Assembly (NCBI GenBank): GCA_964531375.1
Contig: CAZHDO010000004.1
Coordinates: 147-64,146, forward strand
DNA from: an uncultured Candidatus Saccharibacteria bacterium
GTDB taxonomy: Bacteria; Patescibacteriota; Minisyncoccia; Phycocordibacterales; UBA12445
Direction of reading: 5' to 3'
DNA length: 64,000 bases
Part shown: positions 122 through 25,230 of the stretch, piece by piece
Layout of the letters: every line of letters starts with the position of its first letter
Position numbering within the stretch: position 1 is the stretch's first letter
Made by a program: the position numbers and the translations under genes
Notes under the pieces: generated by a model
Told to the model about the DNA's origin: nothing
The model's input: only the letters and a program-made list of their open reading frames with translations
The model's database searches: none

Positions 122-169
122 AATTGTTGCGGAGACCGGATTCGCACCGGTGCCCCAAGGTTATGAGCC
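122..169. repeat. 48-bp direct repeat (distal att-like copy) duplicating the 3' portion of tRNA-Met at 25155..25202
   Basis: The string attgttgcggagaccggattcgcaccggtgccccaaggttatgagcc occurs at 122..169 and at 25155..25202. The second copy overlaps the T-arm and acceptor 3' half of a tRNA on the minus strand. Confidence 0.8.
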
Positions 170-376
170 AGCCTTTGTGGTTTCTAAAATATCCTTATAA
201 TTCCAAATTATTGTTGATATATAAGGTTAATTTTAGATATTTGGATTTATCAGAAATTATCAAATTTGTCATATATTCTCACTTTTTGGGCAACGGGAGG
301 GCAACGTTTTTTGCGCTCTCATCTGTATTATTATCCAAAGTAGGCATGGTAAGCGAGAATAAAAAATGGCGAGCTT

Positions 377-404
377 GGAATAAAAAGACCCCTTTTAAAA
401 GAGG
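377..404 (-). terminator. Rho-independent terminator-like hairpin (gacccc-ttttaaaagag-ggggtc, then T-run) downstream of the 460..969 operon; potentially bidirectional
   Basis: 6-bp GC stem followed by ttttt; an A-run precedes it on the plus strand, so it is T-flanked on both strands. Confidence 0.5.
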
Positions 405-459
405 GGGTCTTTTTGTGGGTAAATTCTTATTTTAACCCCCACTTAAAATCACTAGACAG

Positions 460-969
460 CTATTTGTAAATAGCTATTATTTGTCTAATTATTAGTTCTT
501 CTGGTTTAAGAAAATATCCAGTAAAATCAAACCAAACTTTCATAAAATCTTCTTTATCTATTTTTCTTTCGTGTCCAATTTCAGGATCTTGTAAATAAAT
601 ATTTTTATCATCAATTCCAAAGGCAACAGAATAATGACCATCTGCAACTTCTGAATCGTCATAATCACTTCTCCCTCTCGTAAACCAATCAACAATCACA
701 GGCACACCTTTTTTTAACCAGTTCTCAATATCTTTAAAATCACACTCGTTTTTAATTTCAGCTTTTAAACCGAAGAATTCTACCGCTTTTACGATCCCTT
801 TATCGTCAACACCAATCCCCTTAACCAAGCCTGCAATTTTGGCAATTTCTTTTTCTGTCTTGTCTATTCCGTAATAGTTTAAAACTATTTTTAAAGATGC
901 TGGGCCGCACATATCGGCGTGTAGTGTTTCTTGGAATGGTTTTACGTCTAACATTATTTTCTTTTTCAT
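460..969 (-). CDS. papain-fold cysteine peptidase-like protein (peptidase C39-like / BtrH_N-like)
   Basis: Putative catalytic Cys in HADMCGPASLKIVLNYYG and His in GHYSVAFGID, followed by an Asp-rich segment. 4-nt overlap (ATGA) with the upstream ATP-grasp gene. Confidence 0.55.
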   Translation of the reverse strand: MKKKIMLDVKPFQETLHADMCGPASLKIVLNYYGIDKTEKEIAKIAGLVKGIGVDDKGIVKAVEFFGLKAEIKNECDFKDIENWLKKGVPVIVDWFTRGRSDYDDSEVADGHYSVAFGIDDKNIYLQDPEIGHERKIDKEDFMKVWFDFTGYFLKPEELIIRQIIAIYK

Positions 970-2309
970 TTTTTTATATTATCCTGCTTAAAAATATGTG
1001 TCAATTTTTCATGAATATCTAACACTCTTTGTTTCGTTTTACCAAAAATAACACAAGAAAAAATACAATGATATGAATCAACCGCTACCAATACAACCCC
1101 CTCCTTTTTACCATTTATCGGAAAAAGTATTTGTTTAATTTTATTAAAGATATTTTCAGCTGATAGTATTTTTTCACCGTAGCAAAAAGAATCCGAAGAC
1201 AATGCTATTGTTTTACTAAACCAACGATCCCCAAATACGTGTCTAGTTAAATCATAAACATGAGTTCCACCTGTTCTTCTAACATTAGTCTCGATTGGAA
1301 ACGTTATCCCCTTTTTAGACATAATAAAATCTACATCCAAAAAACCTCGATAACCCAATTTAAAATAACGTTGACCAATCGCATTTCCAATTTTTCTTAT
1401 CTGTTTGTCTATGCTTGTTTTTACACAATTTTTGCCAATTACAATACCAAGAAAACATCCAAATTTATCAACAATCTGATTACATACATAAGTAATTTTA
1501 GAACATTTATCATCAATGAAAATCTCTAAAGACGGAGAGCTTTGGTCATTGTTAGATGAAGGAATAAACTCCTCAACAACAAAAGGATAAAAATTCCAAA
1601 TTGAATCGCTGTTTAATATTGACTTGATTTTACTTATCAACTCCTCTTCTGATGAATATTCGTCGCGGTGAACCATATAAACTCCCCAACCGCCCTCTCC
1701 TGAATATACTTTAATTATCGAGGATTTATTTTTTTTATACATCCAGACAACTGTATCTAAAACCTCTTTCTTGCCCCTACAGATAAAAAACTCTGGAACT
1801 GGTATAGATAAATCTTTCGTCTCGACTCTAAAACCCACCTTCGAACCGAGATAATCCACGAGCCACTGTGCGTTATTTAAAGGTTCCTGATCAACCTTAA
1901 ACAAAAGCTTTTGACCCCTTAATATATTAATTAATTTAGAAAAACTTTCAGTAAAACAATATGAAGAAATAATAATCTTTGGATTATCCCTGATAATACT
2001 AACAATCCTATCCATCAAACAACTATCGTTAATAATTGCATCCGATAAATTAATGTCCATATTCTCAGGAAACAAATTTACGATGTTTTCATACCCCAAA
2101 GACTTTGCATATAAAATAATAGATTTATCTACAGGAAAAGGTGTTATAACAATCTTATTGTCCCCTTCCCAAAACAAAAACCTACTAGACAAAAAATGCT
2201 CTTTGCGAATCTTAGATATTCTTTGAGCCTTGTCTTCGATACTGTTTATTATTGAGGAAAATGCTTCAGTATCATTGGCAATTATTATATTTTTAATTCT
2301 ATTTTTCAT
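966..2309 (-). CDS. ATP-grasp superfamily ligase (divergent)
   Basis: Central VVEEFIP motif and C-terminal RGFLDVDFIM...PIETNVRRTGGTH Mg/ATP-binding-like motif. Translationally coupled to the 460..969 gene. Confidence 0.5.
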   Translation of the reverse strand: MKNRIKNIIIANDTEAFSSIINSIEDKAQRISKIRKEHFLSSRFLFWEGDNKIVITPFPVDKSIILYAKSLGYENIVNLFPENMDINLSDAIINDSCLMDRIVSIIRDNPKIIISSYCFTESFSKLINILRGQKLLFKVDQEPLNNAQWLVDYLGSKVGFRVETKDLSIPVPEFFICRGKKEVLDTVVWMYKKNKSSIIKVYSGEGGWGVYMVHRDEYSSEEELISKIKSILNSDSIWNFYPFVVEEFIPSSNNDQSSPSLEIFIDDKCSKITYVCNQIVDKFGCFLGIVIGKNCVKTSIDKQIRKIGNAIGQRYFKLGYRGFLDVDFIMSKKGITFPIETNVRRTGGTHVYDLTRHVFGDRWFSKTIALSSDSFCYGEKILSAENIFNKIKQILFPINGKKEGVVLVAVDSYHCIFSCVIFGKTKQRVLDIHEKLTHIFKQDNIKK

Positions 2310-2389
2310 ACGTATTATAAGTTATAAAAAAGAGGTGGCTAAGCTTTCGATCAGTCCACCTCTCTCTTTTTTATCACAAAAAATAAACA

Positions 2390-3391
2390 CTAAAGACCAT
2401 AACGCTTTTGAGCAATTAACAAAATTTGTTCAACAAGATATTCAAATGAATATCCGAGGAAACTAGCCATCATGGTAAGAGTATTATTCAAACCATGTGA
2501 ATTAGGACCAATGCCTGGGTTACAATTTGTCTCTAAAAGAAATATTTTTCCATCATCCGACAACCTGTAATCCATCCTCGCATAATCACAGCAGTCAGTC
2601 ATTAAAAATGCGATACGAGTATATTCTTGAAAAAGACGTACTAACTCGTCTGACAAAATCGCTTTTTCCATACCCTCTTTACCACCGCCCCACTTATACT
2701 CATACGAACGTATCCTCTGATAAGGCGGAATGTTTTCACCAAAAACAAACTCAAGAGGTGGAAAAATTTTAATATCTGACCGATTACCGATACAACCAAC
2801 AGAAATTTCTCTTCCCTGGATAAATTCTTCAACCAATACAGGTTGACGATACAACTGCGCGACATACTTAACCCTTTTTGAAAGCTCCTCTATACCCGAA
2901 ACAACACTGTCATAGGTTATGCCAATACTTGCATCTTCATACATCGGCTTAACAATAAGAGGAAACCTCAAATCAACAGCAACAACGTCTTGCTCAGGGT
3001 AAAATACCTGTCGCCTTGGAGTTGGAACGCCATATGTACTCAAAATTAAATTCATTTTCCCCTTATCGCGGGTAAAAATGAAGTTACGAAGAGAAGCACC
3101 TGTAAAGGGAATTTCCAGTGTTTCTAGAATCGCGATATTAAACACCTCACTGGAATTTGACCCACCAAAACCCTCTGCAAGATTAAAAACAATATCAACT
3201 TTTCCTTTTATCGCAGACAGCTTATCAAACAAATCAGGGGTTGATTCCATTAATTCAGCAGAATGACCCTTACTCTGCAAAACGTCCCGAACCAAGGGGG
3301 CAATAATGGTTATCTCTTTTTCACAAATCAGATCTTCTTTATTACCCCTCTTTAATGTCGTAGAAAGATTATACAGCACGATAATGTTCAC
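2390..3391 (-). CDS. ATP-grasp ligase, D-Ala-D-Ala ligase-like
   Basis: LIVKPMYEDASIGI (Ddl-like ATP-binding strand), EEFIQGREISVG, LLETNCNPGIG (E-x-N catalytic loop). Confidence 0.6.
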   Translation of the reverse strand: MNIIVLYNLSTTLKRGNKEDLICEKEITIIAPLVRDVLQSKGHSAELMESTPDLFDKLSAIKGKVDIVFNLAEGFGGSNSSEVFNIAILETLEIPFTGASLRNFIFTRDKGKMNLILSTYGVPTPRRQVFYPEQDVVAVDLRFPLIVKPMYEDASIGITYDSVVSGIEELSKRVKYVAQLYRQPVLVEEFIQGREISVGCIGNRSDIKIFPPLEFVFGENIPPYQRIRSYEYKWGGGKEGMEKAILSDELVRLFQEYTRIAFLMTDCCDYARMDYRLSDDGKIFLLETNCNPGIGPNSHGLNNTLTMMASFLGYSFEYLVEQILLIAQKRYGL

Positions 3392-3523: not shown

Positions 3524-5836
3524 TTACTTAGAATATAATCCCCTCTGCAAAGCATAAAAATTAGTCTGAATAGCTTCTACACCACCCAGCATTTGTTCTG
3601 CGTCTGAGATGGCGTGATATTTAAGGTTAAGTAATATTGGTAGTTGTTCCATACCGAGCTCATCAACACCTTTCTCCTCATACTTATCAAGAACGAAGTT
3701 TAGAAACTCCTTTTGTTTGTCGTCCAAGTCATCCAAGATAGCCACCCTGTTTGAAGCAACTCTATCTTTTCTAGAAATTGGCTGTGTAGCGAACTGAACA
3801 TAAGCAAGAACATCAAAGATATCGCTATCTTCGGCGCCTATTAATTTCTGAAGAACTTCTAACTCATCTCTACCATAACCGAGACCTGCTATCTTCTCCA
3901 AAAAGATCTTCCTAGTTTTTGGATCTGACCAGACCTTTCGCAACTCCTCTTCGTTCCTAAAGAAGTCGGGCATAATGCCAAACATATTCTGCATAAATTC
4001 TTCGACAGAAATCGGTCTTCCGTCTGCGCTCCAAAAAGAAGTGGCTATCATGTGCTGGATCTCTCTCTCCTTTCCATCTCGTAATTTTATTTTTAATTTC
4101 TTCACTGGTTCTTCTAATCCTTCCTGCACTTCGGATGATACTGGTGGATATTCGACGGCGGGTTTCTCTGCTTTTGGTTTTAGTGGATCTTCTGTTATAT
4201 CTGCTATAGGCTCCCCATCCCATTCAGGATCAGCAAAGTGATGATATGCGTCCACAAAATCTATAATAGTGAAATACTCTTTTCCTTCAAATAACCTTGT
4301 CCCCCTTCCGATAATCTGTTTGAACTCAATCATAGAATTAACCGGGCGCATTAAAACAATGTTCCTAATATTTCTTGCATCTACTCCGGTAGAAAGTTTC
4401 TGGGAAGTGGTCAGTATTGTTGGTATTGTTTTTTCGCTATCCTGAAACTCCTTCAAAAATTGTTCACCTCTTGTCCCATCATTTGCTGTAACACGGACAC
4501 AATAAAAAGGATCCTTACTCGTCTTATTTTGGTTTACAAGATCCCGGACAGCAGCGGCGTGCTCTTGCGTAGCACAAAAGACGAGAGTCTTCTCCTTTTG
4601 GTTTATCTCTTGAAGCATGAGCTTAACCCTCTTTTCCTCGCGTGCCTTTATTTCAATAATTCTATTAAAGTCTTCTTCTTTGTAAATTTTACCCTCTTCA
4701 ACTTCGCCCTCTATGATCTGGTCATCGGAAGTATAAACATACTCATCAAGTGTGGTCTGTATTCTTTTAACCCTAAACGGAGTTAAAAAACCATCATTAA
4801 TTCCTTCTTTTAGGGAATAAGTGTAAACAGGTTCTCCAAAATATTTATATGTGTCAACATTGTCTTTTCTTTTTGGTGTAGCAGTCATACCAATCTGAAC
4901 AGCCGGAGAAAAGTATTCTAAAATTGCCCTCCAGTTTGATTCATCATTTGCACCACCTCTATGGCACTCATCCACAAAAATTATATCAAAAAAGTCTTTT
5001 GGGTATTCACCATAGTATGGCGTATTATTCGGCCCACTCATAAATGTCTGAAATATAGTAAAGAAAACACTTCCATTTGTAGGAACACTACCCTTTTTTC
5101 TAATGTCCAATGGATTTATACGAACTAGAGCATCTTCTGGAAACACCGAGAAACCATTAAAGGCTTGATTTGCTAAAATATTTCTATCAGCCAAGAAAAG
5201 AATCCTAGGCCTTCTCACACAGTCCCGCTGTAAACTCCACCTTGTCTGAAAAAGTTTCCATGCAATTTGAAAAGTTATATCTGTTTTGCCTGTACCAGTG
5301 GCGAGTGTGAGAAGTATGCGCTGTTTATTTTCTGCGATAGCTTCTAGTGCTTTATTAACAGCAAGCTCTTTGTAATATCTAACACCAGAATCCCCAAACC
5401 TATTCTCAATAGTAATATCATTAAACTTCTCTCTCCATTCGTTTTGATCTGTATGAGTTCTATTCCAAAGTTCTTCGGGTGTGGGAAATTTGTCCACGTA
5501 TTCTTCATCACCCGTTTTCATATTTATCTGGTAAATTTCTTTACCATTAGTTGCGTAAGTATATTCTATTCTTAATTTTTGGGCATAAACTTTGGCTTGT
5601 GTGACTCCTTCTGTTGAGGGGTCATCTAATTTCTTAGCCTCAATTACAGCCAACTTTTCTTTTTTGTAAGACAAAATATAATCAGCTATCTCTGGCTTAC
5701 CACGGCCTCCACCCATTTGGATCTTTCCATCTGTAATACGAAACTCACGGTAGACTTTTGAGTCTTCAACAACACCCCATCCGCTTTCCTTAAGCTTTGG
5801 ATCTACATATTCAGCTCTTGTTTCTGATTCATTCAT
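3524..5836 (-). CDS. hsdR: type I restriction enzyme R subunit (HsdR)
   Basis: N-terminal HSDR_N-like segment, Walker A LATGTGKT, DEAH-box FVDECHR, helicase C-terminal motifs. Same strand as hsdM and hsdS. Confidence 0.85.
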   Translation of the reverse strand: MNESETRAEYVDPKLKESGWGVVEDSKVYREFRITDGKIQMGGGRGKPEIADYILSYKKEKLAVIEAKKLDDPSTEGVTQAKVYAQKLRIEYTYATNGKEIYQINMKTGDEEYVDKFPTPEELWNRTHTDQNEWREKFNDITIENRFGDSGVRYYKELAVNKALEAIAENKQRILLTLATGTGKTDITFQIAWKLFQTRWSLQRDCVRRPRILFLADRNILANQAFNGFSVFPEDALVRINPLDIRKKGSVPTNGSVFFTIFQTFMSGPNNTPYYGEYPKDFFDIIFVDECHRGGANDESNWRAILEYFSPAVQIGMTATPKRKDNVDTYKYFGEPVYTYSLKEGINDGFLTPFRVKRIQTTLDEYVYTSDDQIIEGEVEEGKIYKEEDFNRIIEIKAREEKRVKLMLQEINQKEKTLVFCATQEHAAAVRDLVNQNKTSKDPFYCVRVTANDGTRGEQFLKEFQDSEKTIPTILTTSQKLSTGVDARNIRNIVLMRPVNSMIEFKQIIGRGTRLFEGKEYFTIIDFVDAYHHFADPEWDGEPIADITEDPLKPKAEKPAVEYPPVSSEVQEGLEEPVKKLKIKLRDGKEREIQHMIATSFWSADGRPISVEEFMQNMFGIMPDFFRNEEELRKVWSDPKTRKIFLEKIAGLGYGRDELEVLQKLIGAEDSDIFDVLAYVQFATQPISRKDRVASNRVAILDDLDDKQKEFLNFVLDKYEEKGVDELGMEQLPILLNLKYHAISDAEQMLGGVEAIQTNFYALQRGLYSK

Positions 5837-5872
5837 AGATTTATTTTATTGTATTTGTTTTAAGAAATATTT

Positions 5873-6415
5873 TTATTTCTTTTGTAATGAATTTGGTATC
5901 TGCTCAAGAATATTCAATAATAGACCAACTGCATTTTCTACACGTTTTAAATCACAGCTTTTGTCCCTTGGTTTACTAAAATGGAAAGTATTTCTAACGT
6001 CATTAATCTCTAAAATCTCTTCCGCCAATTTTTCTTGAATAAGTTTCTTATCTCTAAAAAATACTATAAGTTCTTTTAAACCAATTTGATGTTCCTTCTT
6101 TTCAGCTATTTCTTGAACAGCAATCACTACTGGAAAATCCAATTTTTCTTTATGCCTGTATCCTGGCAACAATTGACTTGGATATTTATATTCAAAATAT
6201 TCAATTTTCTCACCGCGTTCTTTAAAAAAATACAAAAGCACAGCTTCTATTATAGAGATAACATATAAAATTATTACCCTATACACCTCCTCTTGGTATA
6301 GCTTATTTTGTTCATTTTCTTTAGCCTGTTTTGTGTAAAGTACAAAAATAAACTCCATAGAGTCTTCTAAGATTTTACGAAGTCCGTCGTCTTTAATAAA
6401 CTCAAGGTCAGACAT
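5873..6415 (-). CDS. hypothetical protein embedded in the type I R-M operon (candidate Abi/HEPN-like accessory)
   Basis: ORF between hsdR and hsdS. Contains NDVRNTFHF (R-x3-H), which is one residue short of the HEPN R-x4-6-H motif. Confidence 0.4.
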   Translation of the reverse strand: MSDLEFIKDDGLRKILEDSMEFIFVLYTKQAKENEQNKLYQEEVYRVIILYVISIIEAVLLYFFKERGEKIEYFEYKYPSQLLPGYRHKEKLDFPVVIAVQEIAEKKEHQIGLKELIVFFRDKKLIQEKLAEEILEINDVRNTFHFSKPRDKSCDLKRVENAVGLLLNILEQIPNSLQKK

Positions 6416-6421
6416 ATTTTT

Positions 6422-6595
6422 TTAATCAGACTTCTTTTGAGTCATCTTCAATAACTTCGAAAGGGACGGCAGACCTTCCTTTTTTAAAACAGTATGAAGC
6501 TGGGTATCTGATCTATAGCCCAAATCAACACCATATTTTTTCTCTATAGTTTTAACTAAAGTATCTCCCCTCTTTTTAGATATTAGCTTACTCAT
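6422..6595 (-). CDS. small hypothetical protein (57 aa), Lys-rich
   Basis: Hand-translated ORF MSKLISKKRGDTLVKTIEKKYGVDLGYRSDTQLHTVLKKEGLPSLSKLLKMTQKKSD in the hsdS-hsdR gap; not in the provided track. Confidence 0.3.
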   Translation of the reverse strand: MSKLISKKRGDTLVKTIEKKYGVDLGYRSDTQLHTVLKKEGLPSLSKLLKMTQKKSD

Positions 6596-6614
6596 AAATC
6601 AAGTTTAACATATT

Positions 6615-7706
6615 TTAAATTTCACCGCCAAAAGCTTTTTTAAGGACAGATTTTTTGAGCTCATCTAGATCAGCAAGTTTTTTGCTGTAAATTTCTTCTA
6701 GTTTTTTGGTTTCAACAGAGAGATCTTCTAATTTTTTAACAATTTCCTTTTGTTCAGAAATAGATTTTGGAAAAATGATTTCAATTGTTTGAAGTTCAGA
6801 TTTCACAAGACTTGGTATAGTTGTTCCTCTATTCATACTTTTGAAATCAATACCTAAGCATAAATAATAGACAAACCTTTTATCGATATCATTTTCATTT
6901 TTTGGGTAAAAACCAAATGCTGTATCTACATTCCAAAAACGTTCATCAATATAAATTGGTTTACTGATATTTCCCTTTCTCCCGATAATTGTTGTCCCTG
7001 CTTCACAAATGAAATCAGTTGCATAACCCATTACATTTCCAGCACTACCCAAAATTTTGTATTCACCCTTTTCAGATAATACTGCTTGTTGATTTTTACC
7101 GTTCCTAATTTCAATCATTTCCCCCAACTCCCTTTCCTCCCAACTATCCCCCGGATTCGCAAAAATACTCTGTAAATAAGATTCAAAAAGTTCGTGGGAG
7201 TTTTTTATATTTTTCTCTGCGTTTTCTTTCGCCTTAGCTGTCTTCTCAAAAACTTCGTCTAGGATTTTCACGATTCGGTTTTGTTCTGGGAGAGGTGGAA
7301 GGGGGATTTCGAAATTCATCATCTCTTTCATGTTCGCTCGTGGCATCCTTGCCCCAGTGCAAGTATCATTTATTTTTTCCACTATCTCGCCAGAGGTTAT
7401 CCAGTAGAATAAGTATTTCTTATCCAAAGCATTATCAGTTTTTATAGGAAATATTTCAGTTGAGCAATGACCGTCAAAATTCGGCAATAAGACCTTGTTA
7501 AGATAAGGTCTAAGTCTTCCATATAGTAGATACTCTTTATTAAATTTAAAAGTCACACTTTTTACCTTACGTGGTTTTATTGAGCCTATAAATTTACCTG
7601 TATTAGACTCAATGTCTTCCATCCCAATATATGGCAAAGACTCACCGTTATTGGGAGATTTATCAAAACTAGAAACATCGCCAAGTTTTTTTATTTGCCA
7701 AATCAT
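6615..7706 (-). CDS. hsdS: type I restriction-modification specificity subunit (HsdS)
   Basis: Conserved central repeat motif LPPLPEQNRIVKILDEVF. Two target-recognition-domain architecture. Confidence 0.85.
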   Translation of the reverse strand: MIWQIKKLGDVSSFDKSPNNGESLPYIGMEDIESNTGKFIGSIKPRKVKSVTFKFNKEYLLYGRLRPYLNKVLLPNFDGHCSTEIFPIKTDNALDKKYLFYWITSGEIVEKINDTCTGARMPRANMKEMMNFEIPLPPLPEQNRIVKILDEVFEKTAKAKENAEKNIKNSHELFESYLQSIFANPGDSWEERELGEMIEIRNGKNQQAVLSEKGEYKILGSAGNVMGYATDFICEAGTTIIGRKGNISKPIYIDERFWNVDTAFGFYPKNENDIDKRFVYYLCLGIDFKSMNRGTTIPSLVKSELQTIEIIFPKSISEQKEIVKKLEDLSVETKKLEEIYSKKLADLDELKKSVLKKAFGGEI

Positions 7707-7710
7707 GATA

Positions 7711-8295
7711 TTAAAAGAATTTTTGAAGTAATGGGGATAAAACCTGCCAAACGGTTAAAGAATTTGCAGCGACCTCTACCATCTTGGAAATACCCTGCAT
7801 TAGATTTTTAACAACATTCTTTTTACGATTCTCTGGTTTTTGGAACAATTCTTTAGTAATAATATCCAGACTTTCAAGGATTTCATCTTGTTGGTCTTTT
7901 ATCAAGCAGGGTTCAGTCAAGATTTTTTCAGAAAAACTTTTTATATTATCTGCCAATTCTTTTTGGGATGAAGAATATAGGGAATCAATAGTCTGGTTTA
8001 AATTTTGAATATTACCAGAATTCAAAATACCAATTTGGCTATTACTTATGGCTATGTGGTTGTTGTTTATTGTTCCGCCAGAGACCAATACTGGTCGCTT
8101 TACTGGATATCTTGGACCCATACTTATCCCGAACATAGAATCAATACTATCCATGGAGTAGTTCATCTCTTCTCTTAACATCTGAATATTTTTTTCATTC
8201 ATCTCTCGTACTGTTGCGTAGCAGTTCAGACATAGTAGCACCTTTTGATCACCTATCTCATACATTGCGTTGTTACTGCATTGGTAACATTTCAT
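7711..8295 (-). CDS. hypothetical zinc-ribbon protein inserted between hsdM and hsdS
   Basis: N-terminal C4 ribbon CYQCSN...CLNCYA then a predicted helical region. 4-nt overlap with the hsdM stop and 5 nt from the hsdS start. Confidence 0.45.
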   Translation of the reverse strand: MKCYQCSNNAMYEIGDQKVLLCLNCYATVREMNEKNIQMLREEMNYSMDSIDSMFGISMGPRYPVKRPVLVSGGTINNNHIAISNSQIGILNSGNIQNLNQTIDSLYSSSQKELADNIKSFSEKILTEPCLIKDQQDEILESLDIITKELFQKPENRKKNVVKNLMQGISKMVEVAANSLTVWQVLSPLLQKFF

Positions 8296-14690: not shown

Positions 14691-14710
14691 AATGTTTTAT
14701 CTTAATCAGA

Positions 14711-15865: not shown

Positions 15866-15873
15866 ATTTTAAA

Positions 15874-17148: not shown

Positions 17149-17369
17149 TCATACAAGTTTCCCTGTACGGCAGAACATGCAACCCCATATGATGGGTTCT
17201 TTATGCATGTTCTGACTCTTTTCACCATGCCTGACACTGTGCCAAGTTTAGGCTACTTATTATTAAATTGTCTGCCTCTCTAAAATACCACAAAAACAAG
17301 AAAATATCCAAAAAAATAAACAGTAACCCTGATATTGGATTACTGTTTATTTTTTCAATTTATTATATT

Positions 17370-17609
17370 TTATTCCTCAAGAGAGCGAATGTACGCTTCT
17401 GCTTCACTGCGAGTTAGGTCCTCAATATGATTCAAACATTGCTGGGTTGTAGAAATGTCGTCAAAATGCGAAAAAATCAAATCATGCAACCTCCTTCTCT
17501 GGCCTGGTGTAATAGTTTCCTCTTCATCAAATGGACGTTCAGAAAAATCACCGAAGTTAGCAGAATATTCCCTCGGATGATTATAGTCAGTTATAAAATT
17601 GTTTAACAT
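17370..17609 (-). CDS. hypothetical small acidic protein
   Basis: ORF only. Confidence 0.3.
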   Translation of the reverse strand: MLNNFITDYNHPREYSANFGDFSERPFDEEETITPGQRRRLHDLIFSHFDDISTTQQCLNHIEDLTRSEAEAYIRSLEE

Positions 17610-17659
17610 TGTTATAAATTTAAGTTATTAAAAAGACCAGCGAGTTGCTGGCCATGTAT

Positions 17660-18361
17660 CTATCTCAAACCAATAAAACTGGAGATTTGTTCTGAGGCTT
17701 GCTCACGGGTCATCTCTTCTAATTCAGCGAGCCAATTTTTTTTCTCATCATCCCCATGGACTCTTCGTTTTACCAATGATGTTAATAATTCCTTTTGACG
17801 TGCAGTGATCATCTTAGATTCTTTTGAAGGTTTTTCTTCTGTAACAGTGGGGAGAATTGGGAGATCTTCTAAGTCTTGGGTAAAAATTTCAGAAAGATTT
17901 GTGGATCTAATAACCCCATCTATAAATGCTGATTTTAACGACATCTTAATGGTCTTATTTGGATCATTGTCGTTCTTTGCAAGTGTACTAGCTCCTCGTC
18001 CCTGGCCCATGACACTATTACCGCGGTATAGATTGCATACATAGGCAATGAGACCAGGGACACTCTTAAATGCTTCCATTGTCTCATTATCGCGAGAGAA
18101 AGTAGCTGTCAGTGAATAAATACTGGCAAGTTTTTCTGCGCCACCCTTGGCCAGCGACTTTTTGCCTTTGATTACATAATAATCATGGTTCTCTTTGAGT
18201 GTTGGCAAAACTTGGGAAATAAAATAGCTTTTGCGGAGTAGCATGTCGTCTACCCCCTGCCTGAAGCTTTGCATGGCGGTGGTATCTCCCAAGCGGATAG
18301 CACCCTTCTCGATTGTTTGTACGTTGTTCATTGTTTTTAAATTATCTTCTAGTAATAACAA
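17660..18361 (-). CDS. hypothetical protein (island cargo; TTG start in the track, an internal ATG 10 codons in is likelier)
   Basis: ORF only; no motif recognised. Confidence 0.35.
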   Translation of the reverse strand: MLLLEDNLKTMNNVQTIEKGAIRLGDTTAMQSFRQGVDDMLLRKSYFISQVLPTLKENHDYYVIKGKKSLAKGGAEKLASIYSLTATFSRDNETMEAFKSVPGLIAYVCNLYRGNSVMGQGRGASTLAKNDNDPNKTIKMSLKSAFIDGVIRSTNLSEIFTQDLEDLPILPTVTEEKPSKESKMITARQKELLTSLVKRRVHGDDEKKNWLAELEEMTREQASEQISSFIGLR

Positions 18362-18518
18362 CAGAACCCTCTAGGTAATCCACATCGATTTTTTGGCCAA
18401 CACGGAAACCAAATCTATAGAGAATACTATTAGCAATGCGGATCATAGGTTTTAATTCTTTGTTTGAAACAAGACCATATTTACCAGTCGCATAATTAAC
18501 GATCATTTTTCTTTTCAT
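18342..18518 (-). CDS. SymE-like toxin (AbrB/SpoVT-fold, type I TA toxin family) candidate, 58 aa
   Basis: Hand translation MKRKMIVNYATGKYGLVSNKELKPMIRIANSILYRFGFRVGQKIDVDYLEGSVVITRR. It aligns by eye to E. coli SymE at V.YA..Y...P.I.....L...GF..G..VDV...EG..V.T. Confidence 0.45.
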   Translation of the reverse strand: MKRKMIVNYATGKYGLVSNKELKPMIRIANSILYRFGFRVGQKIDVDYLEGSVVITRR

Positions 18519-18524
18519 GTTTGA

Positions 18525-18830
18525 TTAATTAGAAGACAACTTCTCAACCTGAGGGTAATAAAAAAGATGGATAGTCTTCGGATATTTCTTAATGACCACA
18601 CCCTGATCGTTTTTCTTTTCTACAATCGTAATAGACCTCAAAGACTTCTCGCCTTTCTTAACGACGTAACCCAAGCTTCTCCAATCTCGAAAAGTTCTAC
18701 AATTACTATATGGATCGTATTGCTTGGCACTTTCTGCTCCATAGCGTTCGGATATCTGTTGAAAAATTAGCTCCCTAGTTATTTCCGAGCCTCGATAATT
18801 TGTTTTAACCTTATCTTCTGACATAACCAA
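18525..18830 (-). CDS. ArdC N-terminal-domain-like (DUF1738) ssDNA-binding protein, short
   Basis: CRTFRDWRSLGYVVKKGEKSL resembles the ArdC_N core motif TFKQW..LGR.V+KGEK. Confidence 0.45.
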   Translation of the reverse strand: MVMSEDKVKTNYRGSEITRELIFQQISERYGAESAKQYDPYSNCRTFRDWRSLGYVVKKGEKSLRSITIVEKKNDQGVVIKKYPKTIHLFYYPQVEKLSSN

Positions 18831-19222: not shown

Positions 19223-19786
19223 ATGACAAAAACACTAGTAGAAGGGTGCTTTTCACTGGACACAGCACACATTAAAAAGAACCTGGGACGAGCTAGAATA
19301 CACCAAGAGAACATCTCAGGCCAACTTGTAGGTATTCTTGCTGGAAAGCGTCTTATAATAAATTACTGGTTTGAATATGAAGAAGAAGACTCACTGGCGG
19401 TAAGTATAAATGGAAGGCTGGCTCAAAGGATAGGACTAAGTACCCAGGCAATAACATTTGGGACTCGGACATACCTTGTTTGTGAATGTGGCAAGAAGGT
19501 CAGCAAGCTTTATCTTGCCGACCATGGTGGTGATTTAAGGTGTAGAAAGTGTTTGGGTTTGACCTATGAACTGAACACCATAAACAAGGACACAGTACAT
19601 GGTAGGTTCTTTTATCAGATAAACAGGATGATAAAGTTAGCCAATAAAAGTGAGGCAATGGCTAGGATTTTTTACAAAGGAAGATATACCAAGGCGTTCC
19701 TTAGGAACTTAAGAATGATGGCCAAGGCCGGTTTCCCAGAGAAAGGGCTCGAAGCGAGAGGGCTTATGGAGAATATTTGGGCTTGA
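19223..19786 (+). CDS. hypothetical protein with Cys4 zinc-ribbon
   Basis: CECGKKVSKLYLADHGGDLRCRKC. Confidence 0.35.
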   Translation: MTKTLVEGCFSLDTAHIKKNLGRARIHQENISGQLVGILAGKRLIINYWFEYEEEDSLAVSINGRLAQRIGLSTQAITFGTRTYLVCECGKKVSKLYLADHGGDLRCRKCLGLTYELNTINKDTVHGRFFYQINRMIKLANKSEAMARIFYKGRYTKAFLRNLRMMAKAGFPEKGLEARGLMENIWA

Positions 19787-19961
19787 TCTAATATTTTTAA
19801 TGAGACTAGAATATTTAAATTGGGCCAATAAGCAAAAAGTACGAAGTTATCCGTACTTGGTTAGGAAACTAGGGTCAGTTTTTAAATAAAAAAAACATAA
19901 CAAAACGAGACTTGCTAAATAAACTAGTCTGTCCTAATGTTAGCTTAATAAACAAGCTAAT

Positions 19962-21014
19962 ATGGATTTCCTATCAAACAACTACATAGACGAAGAAGTC
20001 CTGTTGAGTTTACTAAAATACTCAAGACCGAAACTATTCCCCAAAAAAGAGGGTATTTTTAAGGGCATAACACTATTAAAAGAATTTGGCCCTTGGGGTC
20101 CTCAGGTTAAAACTAGAGGAATTGATTATTTAGCAGACCTACTAACACAGCTTGAGATTACAAAAACGAATAAAGTTGGTAAATTAATCAAAGACGAAGA
20201 TGGAAGTCTAAAGCCAGATTTTAATCAAGAAATAACACTCTTTGACCTGATAAAACAACTCAAAAACGAACCATTTAGTGAAAATTGGAATACTTATTTT
20301 ATTATTAACAATGGTTCTTCTAAATCAGCCAAAAGGGTAAGGGAATATTTAGATGGGTATATAGAAAGATTTAGGAAAGACGAACTTGTCGAAAATCAAA
20401 ACATAGCACATCTTCCCTATCAAAAACAAAAAGAGTATCTATTCAAAAGCATCATACAAGAGATATCTAACAAGACACCTGAGGGTGATAATATCATTAT
20501 TAAAATTAATGGGAAAATAACAACAGATGATGTTTCCCCTATCGCGTCATTCCTATCTTATGAACAAGAGCAACTGATAAAAATATTAAAAGGACCACAA
20601 CCAAAAACAGAAAATGGAATCACTAAATATTCAATAACCATAAAAGTCAAAAAAGAAAATCTGGAAAGATTTGAAAATGAGAGAAGAAAATATACTGATG
20701 AAATAATCGGGGTTAGAACTTTCTACGATTTCAAAAATGACATTTTATATGTTCGTGGAGATAAAATAAAAACCAACAGTGACGAACAAAGAAGGGTTTT
20801 GAGAATAATTTTTAAAGACGATAAAAAAATTAAAGAAAAATGGGAGTATAGTAAAGTAACAAAGGATCAAGCTGTAGATGAAATAATAACAAATGAAAAA
20901 TATAAAAACTTTTTTTCTCACCTTAATCACAAAATTAAAGAAAAAACAGGGATTGAATCTTTTTTCGAGGTGCATGAAAATTGGGTAAAAATAAGGGAAA
21001 GATATTTGGCTTAA
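19962..21014 (+). CDS. hypothetical Lys-rich protein
   Basis: ORF, followed by a terminator hairpin at 21062..21089. Confidence 0.35.
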   Translation: MDFLSNNYIDEEVLLSLLKYSRPKLFPKKEGIFKGITLLKEFGPWGPQVKTRGIDYLADLLTQLEITKTNKVGKLIKDEDGSLKPDFNQEITLFDLIKQLKNEPFSENWNTYFIINNGSSKSAKRVREYLDGYIERFRKDELVENQNIAHLPYQKQKEYLFKSIIQEISNKTPEGDNIIIKINGKITTDDVSPIASFLSYEQEQLIKILKGPQPKTENGITKYSITIKVKKENLERFENERRKYTDEIIGVRTFYDFKNDILYVRGDKIKTNSDEQRRVLRIIFKDDKKIKEKWEYSKVTKDQAVDEIITNEKYKNFFSHLNHKIKEKTGIESFFEVHENWVKIRERYLA

Positions 21015-21089: not shown

Positions 21090-21127
21090 ATTACGGGAGT
21101 GGATTAAAAAATAAACATAAAATAAAG

Positions 21128-21544
21128 ATGAAAAAAGATAGTAAAAATCTACACGAGCTAATTGATGCGGGGCTCTCGCTTATCCCAATTAAGGAAGGCG
21201 AAAAGATTCCTCATCCTTCTTGTCTTGATTCAAACAAGAAACACAATCTCTTATATACGCAATCTACGCGTGAAGAACTCGATCATTGGATAAATTCGGG
21301 GGTCACCTCTTGGGCTATTGCTGGGGGCAAGGTCTCGGGCAATTTAGTGACTTTAGATTTCGACGAAAAAAACTATCCAGGATTATACGAACTCTGGTAC
21401 GCCAAACTATCAGATGACCAAAAAAGGATTGTTGATAGCTGCTATAAAAACAGCACACGAAACAAAGGGACGCATCTGAGATATAGAACAGAGACGCCAC
21501 AGCCGAGCATAAAGTTAGCTAGTAAAATTAATTTAAAAAAATAA
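21128..21544 (+). CDS. bifunctional DNA primase/polymerase N-terminal domain (prim-pol) protein
   Basis: GLSLIPIKEGEKIPH and NLVTLDFDEKN (the D-x-D of the Prim-Pol fold). Followed 3 nt later by the helicase gene. Confidence 0.5.
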   Translation: MKKDSKNLHELIDAGLSLIPIKEGEKIPHPSCLDSNKKHNLLYTQSTREELDHWINSGVTSWAIAGGKVSGNLVTLDFDEKNYPGLYELWYAKLSDDQKRIVDSCYKNSTRNKGTHLRYRTETPQPSIKLASKINLKK

Positions 21545-21546
21545 AT

Positions 21547-23208
21547 ATGAATAATGAAACAACAGCAGAAACTCGCGCAGAAGGTACCTATGCTCTTATT
21601 CCCCCATCTTCAGGCTACACGACACTACAGGGCGACTTATTAAACCTACCAATTATTTCAAATGAAATTCACGAAGAGTTAATAGACATACTACGCACTT
21701 TTAACGAAGTCAAAGAAGAGCCAGCCACCGAATATGAATGGAAATCGACAGACGCTTCGACCGAAGATAGACCCGGAGACGTACTAAATAGACAAGCTAC
21801 TTGGAAAGAAGTTCTCGAACCTCATGGTTGGGTTGAAGAAACTGAGAATCACTGGAGACGACCTGGCAAAAGAGATGGCGAAGGTATTTCTGCCACGACA
21901 GACCATGACGGCAAATCTATGCTTTATGTATTTTCAACATCTGCTGATCCATTCAAAGCAAACACCGGATATTCTAAATTCCATGTATACACGCTACTTA
22001 ATCACAATGGGAATTTTAAAGAAGCAGCTCGAGTCTTAGGAGAGAAATACGGTCTATCGCCAATAACAAAAGTAAATGACACAAATAACACGGTCTCAAA
22101 AATAGCGACAGCAATCCCCGTCCCTGTTCTCTGGGATGAGTTCAACAAAACGAGCTTCCCTACAAAAAATTGGCGCATAAAAGGACTTGTTCCAATAGAG
22201 GGATTTGTAATCCTAGCAGCAATATCTGGTGAGGGTAAAACATGGATTGCGTTGGAAATGGCAAACACAATAGCACAAGGCAGAAACTTTCTAAACAACC
22301 CAGAATTCGAAACCAAAAAAGGAACTGTCTTGTATTTAGATATCGAAATGGCTAAAAGCGAGTTCCAAAGACGTGGAAGATTGTTGAATATCGACGGCTC
22401 TATTCATGTTTTAAGTGGCTGCGAACTAAATCTAAACAATGACATCGGGGCCAATTGGCTACTTAAGTACATAGACGACAACAAGATTGATGTTGTTATT
22501 GTGGATACATTTAGAGCTGTTGCAGGAGGTATGAAGGAGGACAGAGCTGAGGAGGTTAGAAGTTTTTTCAACAAATTCAGACCCCTTAAAAGCAAGGAAG
22601 TAGTTGTTATCTTTCTAGACCACTTCAGAAAACCACAAAGGTTTGAGGGTAGGATTCCACAAAAGGAGCACCTCTTTGCCAGCCAAGATAAAGCTGCCTC
22701 GGTTGAAAGCTTAATAATGATGAGAAGAGACGAAAATACGGAAAATATAAACATTTATCAAAGAAAAAATCGCATAGGCAAAGAAGTACTCCCCTTCTAC
22801 GTAACAATGAAAGATGGAGTGTCTGGCAAAGATCCTAAAGTAGAAAGGTTAAATTTAACCTATGGAGGAATTATTTCTGAAAAAGAAAAAGTTATTGAAA
22901 AAATAATGCCGTTAATAATGGAGGCTCTAAAAGACGGTGGCAAAGACACAAACGAAATAATAGCTATTTGCAAAAGTGGCCTGAGTGCGGGTGACACAAA
23001 CATAAAGGAGGCTCTAAAGATTCTTTTGGCAGAAAAAACAATCACAATGAATAAAAAAGGGAGAAGGAATTTTTATACTTCAAATGTGCCTGTTGACACT
23101 GAGAATACTGACGACAACACCACTTCAACAGAAACTGGTGAAAATACCAGGGACGAGGACACTTTGAGTGAAGTTGAGAAGACAAACGCCCAATTTGATA
23201 ATTTTTAA
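21547..23208 (+). CDS. replicative RecA-like (AAA_25/RepA/DnaB-family) helicase with C-terminal wHTH, primase-associated
   Basis: Walker A ILAAISGEGKTW, Walker B IDVVIVDTFR, arginine finger region FLDHFRKPQR. Confidence 0.6.
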   Translation: MNNETTAETRAEGTYALIPPSSGYTTLQGDLLNLPIISNEIHEELIDILRTFNEVKEEPATEYEWKSTDASTEDRPGDVLNRQATWKEVLEPHGWVEETENHWRRPGKRDGEGISATTDHDGKSMLYVFSTSADPFKANTGYSKFHVYTLLNHNGNFKEAARVLGEKYGLSPITKVNDTNNTVSKIATAIPVPVLWDEFNKTSFPTKNWRIKGLVPIEGFVILAAISGEGKTWIALEMANTIAQGRNFLNNPEFETKKGTVLYLDIEMAKSEFQRRGRLLNIDGSIHVLSGCELNLNNDIGANWLLKYIDDNKIDVVIVDTFRAVAGGMKEDRAEEVRSFFNKFRPLKSKEVVVIFLDHFRKPQRFEGRIPQKEHLFASQDKAASVESLIMMRRDENTENINIYQRKNRIGKEVLPFYVTMKDGVSGKDPKVERLNLTYGGIISEKEKVIEKIMPLIMEALKDGGKDTNEIIAICKSGLSAGDTNIKEALKILLAEKTITMNKKGRRNFYTSNVPVDTENTDDNTTSTETGENTRDEDTLSEVEKTNAQFDNF

Positions 23209-23221
23209 TCTTTCTGTTTAT

Positions 23222-23280: not shown

Positions 23281-23349
23281 ATTTACTACAAGAAGGAATT
23301 AAGAAGATGTGGTTAGACAACAAAATTACAATTCTAATTTAAAAACAAA

Positions 23350-23634
23350 ATGAGAAGTATTGAAAGACGTTTTAAGGAAATAGAGAACAAAGACCAAGGA
23401 CCGGGAACTGTCATTAACTTTGGCAAAGCAGTAGTGGGACAAAATTTCTCTCATAAAATTATTACTATGTGGTTCAATAAATTAGTTGATCCTGACGATT
23501 ACCTGAAAAGCGAGAAGAAAGGGATATTGGCACACCTCGACCAGCTTACCAAAATGCCTGAGGAGGTCGTTAAATTGAATAAATTTGAGATTAAAGGCAC
23601 TCCGTTTATTAAAGTGGCACAAAACCACAACTAA
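23350..23634 (+). CDS. hypothetical protein
   Basis: ORF only. Confidence 0.3.
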   Translation: MRSIERRFKEIENKDQGPGTVINFGKAVVGQNFSHKIITMWFNKLVDPDDYLKSEKKGILAHLDQLTKMPEEVVKLNKFEIKGTPFIKVAQNHN

Positions 23635-23775
23635 TCCCAAAAATAATGACAACCGTACAAAAAGTGCACCATTGCAACTTGACTGAAATATTGATGGGTC
23701 TATTCTTTAATAGGAACCCAATGACTTTTAAAATGATTGAAAGTCACACCATGCTTACTTTGAAAATTAAATAAA

Positions 23776-23994
23776 ATGGATGTATCGAGGGACAATACAG
23801 AAAGACTGCTGAATAGAAATGAGGTAATGAAAATGCTCAACATATCAAAAGCTGGATTTTATAGACTAGTCTATAAAAGAGAGATCCCCTTCTATAAAGT
23901 TGGCGGTGGCTTGAGATTTTCTGTGGAGGATATTCTTTCTTATCTGAAAAACAATAGAGTTCCCTCGATACATGAATATAAAAAACAAATATGA
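23776..23994 (+). CDS. excisionase/HTH_17-family DNA-binding protein
   Basis: LNISKAGFYRLVYKREIPFYKVGGGLRFSVEDILSYL is a typical helix-turn-helix excisionase domain. 4-nt overlap with the integrase start. Confidence 0.55.
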   Translation: MDVSRDNTERLLNRNEVMKMLNISKAGFYRLVYKREIPFYKVGGGLRFSVEDILSYLKNNRVPSIHEYKKQI

Positions 23995-25133
23995 GCGTTA
24001 GAAAAATAAGAAATAAGTACTGGGTGGACTTTACCCACGACCGTACCAGGTACAGAAGAATGAGTCCTGAAAATTCCAGAGCCGGAGCTTCCGCTTTTGA
24101 AGTGGCGCTTAGGCACAAGCTTGCGATAGGAGAAAGCATAGATAAAGTATCCTGCAAAAATGAAAAGGAAAAGACTTTCAAAGATTTCTCTCTTGAATGG
24201 TTTAATACTTATGTCAAAAACAATAATAAAGCGGCTGAGATAAAAAGAAAAGAGAGTGCTTTGAATAGACACCTTATCCCCTTTTTTGGAAAAAAAGAGA
24301 TAAACAAAATAACTGGAAGAGATGTGGAAAATTTCAAGGCTCTGAAAAGGAACGAAGGGCTATCTAATAAATCGACAAATAATTACCTTGATGTATTCAG
24401 TAAATGTTTAGCAAGTGCAAACGAGTGGTTTGGCCTGGACAATTTGCCAAAAATGAAGAAATTGAAACTCCCTCCACTGAAAAACCTTTTTCTTTCAACA
24501 GAAGAATGCAAGAAACTCCTGGAAAACACTGAAGGAATTTGGCGTGAAATTATACTTACGGCTATGACGACAGGAATGAGGCAGGGAGAATTAAAGGCGC
24601 TCGACTGGCCAGATGTCGATCTTGAAAACAAAGAGATAACGGTCAGGTACTCTTGGTGCGAGTATTCACAAGACAAAGTAGCCCCCAAAAGCAACAAGGA
24701 GAGAAAGATACCGATAACTAATGAGCTTTGTTGGGAATTAATAAAAAGAAGACAGAAGACAGGAATAGTATTCCCCGACATACTTGGCAAAAGGTTTGAT
24801 AAACAAAAATTAAATACGAAGATAGCTAGAGGATGTAAAAAGGCCGGCTTGGAAGTAATAACCTGCCACATACTGCGACACACCTATGCTTCACACTTAG
24901 CACTGGCGGGAGTTTCTATACAGAAAATTCAAGCACTGCTGGGCCACGCAAACATACAGATAACAATGCGTTACGCTCATTTGACCCCCTCCAGTTTAAG
25001 AGAAGCAGTAAATATGTTAGAGCCGCTAGTCACTCCTTCTTTAATTTTAAGGCAACCGGCAGGCAACGCGGTAAAAAAAAGCGCCGTTGCATTTTGGGGC
25101 GAAACGGCACCTTTTCCAAATAAGCTTATCTGA
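23991..25133 (+). CDS. int: tyrosine-type site-specific integrase (phage integrase family)
   Basis: Catalytic residues TGMRQGE (Arg), HILRHTYASHLA (His-x-x-Arg), GHANIQITMRYAHL (Tyr). The gene ends 27 nt from the tRNA 3' end. Confidence 0.85.
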   Translation: MSVRKIRNKYWVDFTHDRTRYRRMSPENSRAGASAFEVALRHKLAIGESIDKVSCKNEKEKTFKDFSLEWFNTYVKNNNKAAEIKRKESALNRHLIPFFGKKEINKITGRDVENFKALKRNEGLSNKSTNNYLDVFSKCLASANEWFGLDNLPKMKKLKLPPLKNLFLSTEECKKLLENTEGIWREIILTAMTTGMRQGELKALDWPDVDLENKEITVRYSWCEYSQDKVAPKSNKERKIPITNELCWELIKRRQKTGIVFPDILGKRFDKQKLNTKIARGCKKAGLEVITCHILRHTYASHLALAGVSIQKIQALLGHANIQITMRYAHLTPSSLREAVNMLEPLVTPSLILRQPAGNAVKKSAVAFWGETAPFPNKLI

Positions 25134-25154
25134 AGAGCTTATTTCGAGAAACAA

Positions 25155-25202
25155 AATTGTTGCGGAGACCGGATTCGCACCGGTGCCCCAAGGTTATGAG
25201 CC
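25155..25202. repeat. 48-bp direct repeat (att core within tRNA-Met), partner of 122..169
   Basis: Identical to 122..169. Confidence 0.8.
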
Positions 25203-25230
25203 TTGTGAGGTACTACTCCTCCACTCCGCT
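25160..25230 (-). tRNA. tRNA-Met(CAU)-type (initiator, elongator Met or Ile2 not resolved); no encoded CCA
   Basis: Hand fold of the minus strand: acceptor AGCGGAG/CTCCGCA with a 1-72 A.A mismatch; D-stem GAGG/CCTC; anticodon stem CAAGG/CCTTG; loop CTCATAA (anticodon CAT); T-stem ACCGG/CCGGT; T-loop TGCGAAT. Confidence 0.7.

Follow-up and report, generated by a model that had tools for sequence, protein, structure and literature searches.

A probable integrative element at a tRNA-Met gene of a Patescibacteria bacterium carries two restriction systems and a LOOT RNA

The main result of this work is the delimitation, base by base, of a 25-kb island in the genome of a Patescibacteria bacterium. 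The window analysed is a stretch of 64,000 nucleotides (contig CAZHDO010000004.1 of GenBank assembly GCA_964531375.1, positions 147 to 64,146), and its bases 170-25154 very probably constitute an integrative mobile element that entered the chromosome at a tRNA-Met(CAT) gene by means of its own tyrosine integrase. An original prediction, made from the letters of the window without database searches, had proposed the architecture of a tRNA-targeting integrative element for this region, and the proposal is supported by the attachment (att) repeats, by a probable displaced tRNA terminator, by the adjoining integrase and excisionase genes (int and xis) and by a sibling element found in a metagenome contig. 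Bacteria of the candidate phyla radiation (CPR), or Patescibacteria, have tiny genomes in which, to our knowledge, few mobile elements have been recognised, and we know of nobody who has established the route by which they exchange genes.

Attachment Sites, Target tRNA and Integration Module

The features at the two ends of the island are as follows.

95..119, minus strand: terminator-like hairpin, AAAAATCGCC-GTTGTT-GGCGATTTTT, with a T-run, directly outside the left repeat (from reading the sequence)
122..169, no strand assigned: attL core, displaced 3' fragment of tRNA-Met (tRNA positions 29-72 plus 4 nt; exact repeat)
288..306, plus strand: tandem pair GGGCAACG-N3-GGGCAACG, 11 bp from start to start, candidate arm-type sites of the left arm (motif count)
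23776..23994, plus strand: HTH_17 (AlpA/MerR-type) excisionase-like DNA-binding protein (Pfam HTH_17, 8.3e-13; PHROG 66 excisionase, 2.9e-7)
23991..25133, plus strand: tyrosine integrase of 380 aa, reading outward to the tRNA (Pfam Phage_integrase, 1.5e-31; SAM_3)
25050..25068, plus strand: tandem pair AGGCAACC-N3-AGGCAACG, 11 bp from start to start, candidate arm-type sites of the right arm
25155..25202, no strand assigned: attR core, forming the 3' part of the intact tRNA (exact repeat)
25159..25230, minus strand: intact tRNA-Met(CAT), the integration target (ARAGORN, Rfam)

The island is bounded by an exact direct repeat of 48 bp. When both flanks were read base by base, its copies were found at 122-169 and 25155-25202, just where the original prediction had placed them, and its limits are sharp, since base 121 differs from base 25154 and base 170 from base 25203. 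The repeat is by a wide margin the longest in the first 25.4 kb; it has two exact copies in the window, and none was matched in 100 shuffles. A search for a degenerate third att copy inside the island found none, and the possibility of a tandem or composite island was rejected on this ground.

The repeated segment comprises tRNA positions 29-72 and the 4 nt that follow the 3' end. Its right copy forms, as had been claimed, the 3' part of an intact minus-strand tRNA with anticodon CAT, located at 25159-25230 by ARAGORN and at 25160-25230 by the Rfam tRNA covariance model (55 bits against a threshold of 29). The left copy is indeed a partial tRNA only, without the 28 nt of the 5' side. Because of its position, the hairpin at 95-119 is probably the original terminator of the tRNA gene, cut off by the insertion.

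The target tRNA has an A1xA72 mismatch, an A11:U24 pair and an acceptor stem that resembles that of tRNA-fMet; its anticodon stem holds only two G:C pairs (G30, G31), the usual GG is missing from its D loop (AGTAGTA), and its T loop is TGCGAAT, not TTCRANY. Bacterial initiator tRNAs are marked by a 1:72 mismatch, by A11:U24 and by three G:C pairs in a row at the base of the anticodon stem. Judged from its sequence and these textbook identity elements, the target looks like an initiator tRNA. The tRNA-Met at 6599-6671 of L011, a Vogelbacteria metagenome-assembled genome (MAG) that is the closest relative available, has C1xA72, the same D loop without GG and a similarly non-canonical T loop (TGCAATT), and in the window and L011 together this type of tRNA appears lineage-specific, unusual and initiator-like.

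The integrase gene ends beside the tRNA. Its product had been described as a tyrosine integrase with the R-H-R-Y residues, and a residue-level alignment agrees: R197, H293, R296, H319 and Y328 match the catalytic residues of XerA (4a8e). The stop codon (25133) lies 21 nt from the att core and 25-26 nt from the 3' end of the tRNA, a slight correction to the 27 nt given before. The helix-turn-helix gene said to precede it as an excisionase candidate was recovered as well, with its clear HTH_17 match, and overlaps the start of the integrase gene by 4 nt. The integrase has many homologues with 45-56% identity; where these are named, they belong to non-CPR phyla, the nearest being from Dadabacteria, Nitrospinales and Desulfosarcina. 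Two relatives, L091 (54% identical) and L092 (53%), share the xis-int pair with no tRNA nearby. The integrase family is thus not bound to tRNA-Met, and the idea of a tRNA-Met-specific family was discarded.

Counted on both strands, the heptamer GGCAACG has just three copies in the whole window (64 kb), all of them within the two arms of the island, where the tandem pairs lie; the right pair sits within the 3' end of the integrase gene. We regard these pairs as candidate arm-type binding sites for the integrase or the excisionase. Together with the N-terminus of the integrase, an arm-binding-like segment, they are consistent with a directional, excisionase-controlled integration system.

Host Flanks and a Related Locus without the Island

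Both flanks are ordinary host DNA. To the right of the tRNA stand a 203-aa gene, a GIY-YIG gene, rplL, rplJ, gatA, gatC and ligA; to the left of the window follow tRNA-Asp, tRNA-Met and tRNA-Thr, a PemK toxin gene, a release-factor gene and ftsEX. The ribosomal protein L10 is at most 53% identical to that of any of 185,579 species genomes, and its best matches are all Patescibacteria (Vogelbacteria, Paceibacteria and others); therefore the host is a poorly sampled CPR bacterium, which judged by sequence appears to be Paceibacteria-like.

The window is part of a metagenome contig of 88.7 kb. The same region has also been assembled in the NCBI MAG GCA_037130235.1 and in other assemblies, and four independent assemblies (two from ENA, the NCBI MAG and one more) show identical joins on contigs of 65-93 kb. 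Exact look-ups with two right-flank proteins and one island protein returned six contigs each, every long one of which holds the island. An empty site of the same species was not found, because only these six contigs carry the flanking genes and the long ones all bear the island. The Logan contigs (k=31) break within the repeat and cannot show new junctions, since the 48-nt repeat exceeds k-1.

A comparison across species was possible with L011, in which the same unusual type of tRNA-Met comes after a gene with 52% identity to the 203-aa gene, and no integrase is present; then come a DnaJ-domain gene, dsbA and dsbB, and 4 kb further on a tRNA-Asp/Thr/Met cluster. On the island contig the matching tRNA cluster begins 195 bp past the left repeat. 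The gene order of the flanks is kept as in L011, distant as this relative is, and by this comparison the 25 kb between them would be extra.

Some features of the flanks deserve mention in their own right. In the left flank, outside the window, a gene for a 114-aa GIY-YIG endonuclease stands beside tRNA-Asp (L004, 11043-11439), and a 24-nt copy of the 5' part of this tRNA (TAACCAGTTGAGCTACGACCGCAT) occurs at 11097-11120 and again at 11402-11425, as though a homing endonuclease had left it there on inserting. The right flank has another small GIY-YIG gene (window 26099-26374). Farther away, at 56089-56177 (minus strand), stands a class II tRNA-Ser whose anticodon loop, TTACTAA, gives it the anticodon ACT, with A at position 34; a normal tRNA-Ser(GCT) is found at a distance of 1.2 kb. 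In bacteria, A34 is unusual outside tRNA-Arg.

A Primase-Helicase Gene Split by One Nucleotide

The replication module of the island is the following.

21128..23208, plus strand: primase-polymerase/RecA-like helicase (AAA_25, DnaB_C), split into 21128-21544 and 21547-23208 (PHROG 19930)

The original prediction of a primase-polymerase plus RecA-like helicase module was right as to content. The two are, however, one gene split by a frameshift of 1 nt: the nearest homologues are single proteins of 655 aa (56-57% identity), and a conceptual -1 fusion aligns with them without a gap through the catalytic domain. The 138-aa Prim-Pol open reading frame (ORF) and the 553-aa helicase ORF match consecutive stretches of the phage primase family PHROG 19930, the Prim-Pol domain itself scoring 22.7 bits in Pfam, just under the cut-off of 22.8. 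The break lies at a run of seven A (21535-21541, A_AAA_AAA) followed directly by TAA (21535-21544 in all), the downstream ORF being in the -1 frame; in a DNA comparison the relatives have no A-run at this position. A run of eight A, or a -1 slip, would give back the single protein of the relatives. The heptamer may serve programmed -1 frameshifting or transcriptional slippage, or a deletion that turned A8 into A7 may have inactivated the gene recently; an error in the consensus is less likely.

Related Elements in Other CPR Bacteria

Homologues of the primase-helicase and of the island's annealing protein (see below) number in the hundreds in CPR. The replication gene recurs in more than 25 further CPR loci, mostly with serine recombinases, and these loci adjoin tRNA or tmRNA genes with the geometry of the island. 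In these other CPR contigs the replication gene is followed by an ORF of about 50 aa and then by a large serine recombinase gene, the 3' end of which abuts or overlaps (by no more than about 90 nt) an opposite-strand tRNA or tmRNA gene. Large serine recombinase genes in this position are:

L093, 4161-5780
L096, 9186-10946
L097, 12185-13947
L101, 11483-13406
L103, 12718-14460

This arrangement suggests that the serine recombinases of the related elements may perform tRNA-targeted integration. Where checked, these elements showed no long direct repeats, as expected for this class of enzyme. Their targets are tRNA-Asn, tRNA-Trp, tRNA-Gln and tmRNA, to which a metagenome scan added tRNA-Ala, Tyr, Glu, Lys, His, Ser and Met. 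As cargo they bear DpnII-type and type III-like restriction-modification (R-M) systems and SIR2 plus HerA. In L097 (1907-4558), six copies of TGGGACGATGTTGGAA recur every 450-585 bp among small ORFs, which looks like a cassette array; this repeat is absent from the window.

The element closest in design is L107, a complete tyrosine-integrase element of 9.1 kb in a metagenome contig, flanked by exact 27-bp direct repeats. Its order is helicase, HTH_17 xis, integrase and tRNA-Met(CAT), the last being another tRNA-Met gene, and its cargo consists of HEPN/nucleotidyltransferase genes and a trypsin-like gene. At the level of sequence, L107 provides the strongest independent indication that the module would duplicate the tRNA end on integrating. 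The integration module therefore exists in two forms, a serine recombinase with the ORF of about 50 aa in most members and a tyrosine integrase with xis in the island and in L107. Whether all these elements constitute one CPR integrative family, with a primase-polymerase of archaeo-eukaryotic primase (AEP) type joined to an AAA_25 helicase, swappable integration modules, many tRNA and tmRNA targets and a LOOT RNA, hitherto undescribed in the literature, is in our view an evenly balanced question. Full-text literature searches returned no description of such a family in CPR.

Backbone Genes and the LOOT RNA

Between the cargo and the replication gene lie the following features.

17135..17254, minus strand: LOOT RNA (Rfam RF03000; 70.6 bits against a gathering score of 46.4, model positions 1-121)
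17310..17356, minus strand: strong terminator hairpin, a 20-bp stem and then a T-run, which ends the leftward backbone operon
17370..18830, minus strand: leftward backbone operon of four genes, divergent from the replication side
17370-17609, minus strand: 79-aa protein
17660-18331, minus strand: 223-aa single-strand annealing protein with RAD52/Sak-like fold (AlphaFold model)
18342-18518, minus strand: 58-aa SymE/AbrB-like protein, weak match (SymE 18 against a cut-off of 29)
18525-18830, minus strand: 101-aa ArdC-N-like protein, weak match (Pfam, 22.4 bits against a cut-off of 22.6)
19223..21014, plus strand: two backbone genes, of 187 aa with a Cys4 zinc-ribbon-like motif (19223-19786) and of 350 aa (19962-21014)

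The SymE-like toxin and the ArdC-N-like protein of the original prediction are weak matches, both under their Pfam cut-offs. The AlphaFold model of the 223-aa protein (predicted local distance difference test, pLDDT, 87) resembles the annealing proteins RAD52, Mgm101, Sak and Red-beta. Its gene bears the tag WCO84_01925 in the NCBI MAG, and a 64%-identical paralogue (P0244, WCO84_02525) has the same locus-tag prefix, which suggests that one more element of this family is probably present in the genome. The 187-aa and 350-aa proteins gave no family matches in Pfam, PHROG or NCBIfam, and a single-sequence structure model of the latter was discarded as unusable (pLDDT 47).

The LOOT RNA stands directly past the terminator of the backbone operon and 40 nt upstream of an operon for secreted proteins. 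Rfam lists LOOT (RF03000) as a metagenomic-based family. The same RNA was found by Rfam in L096 (1027-1145) and L097 (9369-9484) and by a covariance model built in this work in L099 (1958-2075) and L101 (9122-9236); it is present in the sibling L107 too (6764-6885). Compensatory changes are visible in the alignment of the window copy with those of L096 and L097, and a conserved tail, GGGYUUUnUGUU, follows the end of the Rfam model in all five cases inspected. LOOT was detected in 22 of 52 metagenome loci, and in 16 of the 22 with at least 2.5 kb of sequence upstream of the helicase; all but one of the 22 matches lie on the strand opposite the helicase, with a median distance upstream of 743 nt. 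Five elements were checked for its position, and in them it precedes, on the same strand, the first gene of the leftward cargo operon by 40-72 nt. No match was obtained in the chromosomal DNA around rplJ, of which about 1.15 Mb from CPR was covered. It is possible that LOOT is a cis-acting leader that controls the expression of the cargo, and if so, an orphan RNA motif would gain a host phylum and a genetic context.

Cargo of the Island

The remaining part of the island, from its left end to the LOOT RNA, carries the cargo, all of it on the minus strand.

460..3391, minus strand: ligase/peptidase cargo module as a whole
460-969, minus strand: stand-alone C39-like cysteine peptidase (Pfam, NCBIfam)
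966-2309, minus strand: 447-aa protein with weak likeness to ATP-grasp L-amino-acid ligases (LdmS/BesA, E 1.6e-6, far below the cut-off)
2390-3391, minus strand: Ddl-like ATP-grasp ligase (Pfam, NCBIfam)
3524..9764, minus strand: complete type I R-M system, with HsdR, HsdM and HsdS all present
3524-5836, minus strand: hsdR (ResIII 1.8e-33, EcoEI_R_C, HSDR_N)
5873-6415 and 7711-8295, minus strand: two unknown ORFs among the hsd genes
6615-7706, minus strand: hsdS (Methylase_S 1.5e-38, two Methylase_S domains)
8292-9764, minus strand: hsdM (N6_Mtase 5.5e-62, HsdM_N)
9825..11924, minus strand: GmrSD-family type IV (modification-dependent) restriction nuclease with C-terminal DUF5655 (GmrSD_N 4.7e-39, GmrSD_C 1.6e-25)
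12179-13036, minus strand: membrane-anchored SppA-like S49 peptidase (TIGR00706 SppA 2.2e-38, N-terminal transmembrane helix)
13024-13686, minus strand: tetratricopeptide repeat (TPR) protein (Pfam)
13914-14690, minus strand: 258-aa secreted or membrane-anchored protein
14711-15865, minus strand: 384-aa protein with Cys-rich repeats like thrombospondin type 1 repeats
15874-17094, minus strand: 406-aa secreted or membrane-anchored protein

Pfam and PADLOC together substantiate the type I R-M system and the GmrSD-like nuclease that had been read in the interior of the island, the latter appearing in PADLOC as Orf5 (3e-185), HEC-06 and mREase_IV. The S49 peptidase gene is common to the island and the related element L096. 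The 406-, 384- and 258-aa proteins (13914..17094) have N-terminal hydrophobic signal or anchor segments in their translations and no match in Pfam, PADLOC or PHROGs.

Mechanism and Alternative Explanations

We infer that the integrase made the insertion and that excision and replication still work. In the mechanism we propose, the integrase would recombine the attP site of a circular element with the 3' part of tRNA-Met(CAT), a segment that begins at the anticodon stem and reaches 4 nt beyond the 3' end. The element carries its own copy of the 48-bp segment and therefore integration would rebuild a complete tRNA at the integrase end, while the original 3' fragment and the tRNA terminator would be pushed 25 kb away. 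If the island behaves as well-studied elements do, its excision would require both the integrase and the HTH_17 excisionase, probably by way of the GGCAACG pairs in the two arms, and the excised circle would be copied by the primase-polymerase/helicase with the help of the RAD52/Sak-like annealing protein. The rest of the element would be cargo of benefit to the host, namely the two restriction systems, the LOOT-led operon for secreted proteins with the SppA-like protease, and the peptide-ligase/peptidase cluster.

Several observations weigh against a mobile element inserted in this way. No conspecific empty site or excised circle was found, all long contigs of the population carrying the island, and a 35-nt att core had no exact match in the 185,579 species genomes, the JGI metagenomes or IMG/VR. 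The relative used for comparison, L011, is only remotely related (its L10 is 53% identical), and at the site it has genes of its own over 4 kb. With a GC content of 0.360 against 0.362 in the host and with host-like tetranucleotide usage, the island shows no independent sign of foreignness; in fact, the GC and tetranucleotide distances of its windows stay within the host range (z from -1.5 to +1.5), so that the compositional comparison suggested with the original prediction proved uninformative. We take such a composition as neutral, since it fits long residence as well as circulation among similar CPR hosts. The frameshift lies inside the catalytic domain of the primase-polymerase, and the element could have lost replication. 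Moreover, Pfam, PADLOC and PHROGs revealed no genes for cell-to-cell transfer or packaging.

Alternatively, the island may have come by the same route but have since become fixed and begun to decay, so that it no longer replicates or moves and is retained for its defence and surface-protein cargo; we consider this possible, if on the unlikely side. The broken primase-polymerase, of which the relatives have an unbroken ORF without the A-run, the wholly host-like composition, the presence of the island on every long contig of the population and the want of transfer genes would all agree with decay. On the other hand, the 48-bp repeats are still identical, and the integrase, the excisionase and the candidate arm sites are intact. 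The seven A stand directly before the stop codon, where a -1 ribosomal slip, or one A added by RNA polymerase, would restore the protein, and a host-like composition is also expected if the circulation of the element is confined to related CPR hosts.

Taken together, the integrase, the AlpA-type excisionase, the primase-helicase and the defence cargo match P4-like satellites and those of the phage-inducible chromosomal island (PICI) type, which would make the island a prophage or a phage satellite that spreads in phage capsids. The phage relatives of the annealing protein and the primase and the match of the S49 peptidase to PHROG 53 'head maturation protease' (1.5e-39) point the same way. We find this improbable: neither Pfam nor PHROGs revealed a capsid, portal, terminase, tail or lysis gene in the island, and the S49 protein, which starts with a membrane helix at its N-terminus, fits SppA equally well. 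No relative of the helicase turned up among 2.9 million viral contigs, on which ground a viral origin was rejected, and the att core is likewise unmatched there. Very improbable, too, is an integrative mobilisable or conjugative element whose single-stranded DNA passes through a type IV secretion system. Conjugative plasmids typically encode proteins of the ArdC type, and the near-threshold ArdC-N-like match mentioned above could be read in this sense. The searches of the island proteins in Pfam, NCBIfam, PADLOC and PHROGs, however, detected no relaxase, oriT protein, coupling protein or type IV secretion system component, and no relaxase, coupling protein or type IV secretion system was seen in the related elements either; the words 'possibly mobilisable' in the original prediction are thus left without support.

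A chimera assembled through the shared 48 bp, or a chance partial duplication of a tRNA, would be thinkable because the data are metagenome assemblies and the Logan contigs break inside the repeat. We give this almost no credence, since the same joins recur in four separate assemblies, the repeat is shorter than a normal read, graph breaks at k=31 are expected at any repeat of at least 31 nt, and the sibling L107 reproduces the architecture. An integrative element placed in tRNA-Met(CAT) by its own integrase is the explanation that we prefer.

Comparison with Known Elements and Significance

The island agrees with the Islander-type islands of tRNA and tmRNA genes in its integrase beside an intact tRNA, in an element sequence that regenerates the 3' part of the gene, in the displaced fragment at the far end, in a block of identity that runs from the anticodon stem to the 3' end, and in its accessory cargo (PMC4383910). 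It differs from them in its very small CPR genome, in its initiator-like target and in its CPR-specific backbone of primase-helicase, annealing protein and LOOT (PMC4383910). In organisation, the tycheposons of Prochlorococcus are closest (10.1101/2020.12.28.424599). They also reside in a streamlined host, bear cargo and an end-located integrase with an excisionase and a small primase/helicase module, use tRNA (including Met-CAT) and tmRNA targets and have no conjugation genes; their integrases are mostly tyrosine recombinases, with some large serine recombinases (10.1101/2020.12.28.424599). Tycheposons are, however, defined by an inward integrase from a tyrosine recombinase lineage specific to them, whereas that of the island reads outward; the CPR family has mostly serine recombinases and possesses LOOT; and tycheposon cargo serves nutrient uptake, while that of the island consists of defence and surface proteins (10.1101/2020.12.28.424599).

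Pipolins (PMC11551731) and the hotspots of P4-like satellites (PMC13586616) are similarly integrative, often at tRNA genes and with direct repeats, and combine a replication gene with an exchangeable reservoir of defence systems. The island has no primer-independent PolB (piPolB), its replication gene being an AEP primase-polymerase with an AAA_25 helicase, in which it departs from pipolins (PMC11551731); from P4-like satellites it is set apart by the absence of their capsid-size and packaging genes (psu, sid, delta, cos) (PMC13586616), and from both by a different host phylum. Because its integrase is outward, and because it has neither piPolB nor packaging genes, we do not file it under tycheposons, pipolins or P4 satellites. 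Islands described in Patescibacteria MAGs, one of them with a full type I R-M system, resemble it in their host class (Paceibacteria) and in this type of cargo, with hsdR, hsdM and hsdS on an island (PMC12455944). Those islands were predicted by composition (IslandViewer, DarkHorse), while here the ends are base-exact and the composition is not atypical; the main text of that report has no occurrence of the words integrase or tRNA (PMC12455944).

In kind, then, the island is ordinary, a textbook case in an unusual host that holds no surprise for a specialist in mobile elements, although the family to which it belongs may be undescribed. Its significance lies in a base-mapped element that amounts to about 3% of the DNA of a typical CPR genome and brings with it two restriction systems and a set of surface proteins, and it offers a concrete example of how CPR cells acquire defence and surface functions. 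The relatives give the orphan structured RNA LOOT a context in which it can be tested, and the primase-helicase and LOOT RNA beside a tRNA or tmRNA gene provide a practical handle for finding such elements in CPR bacteria.

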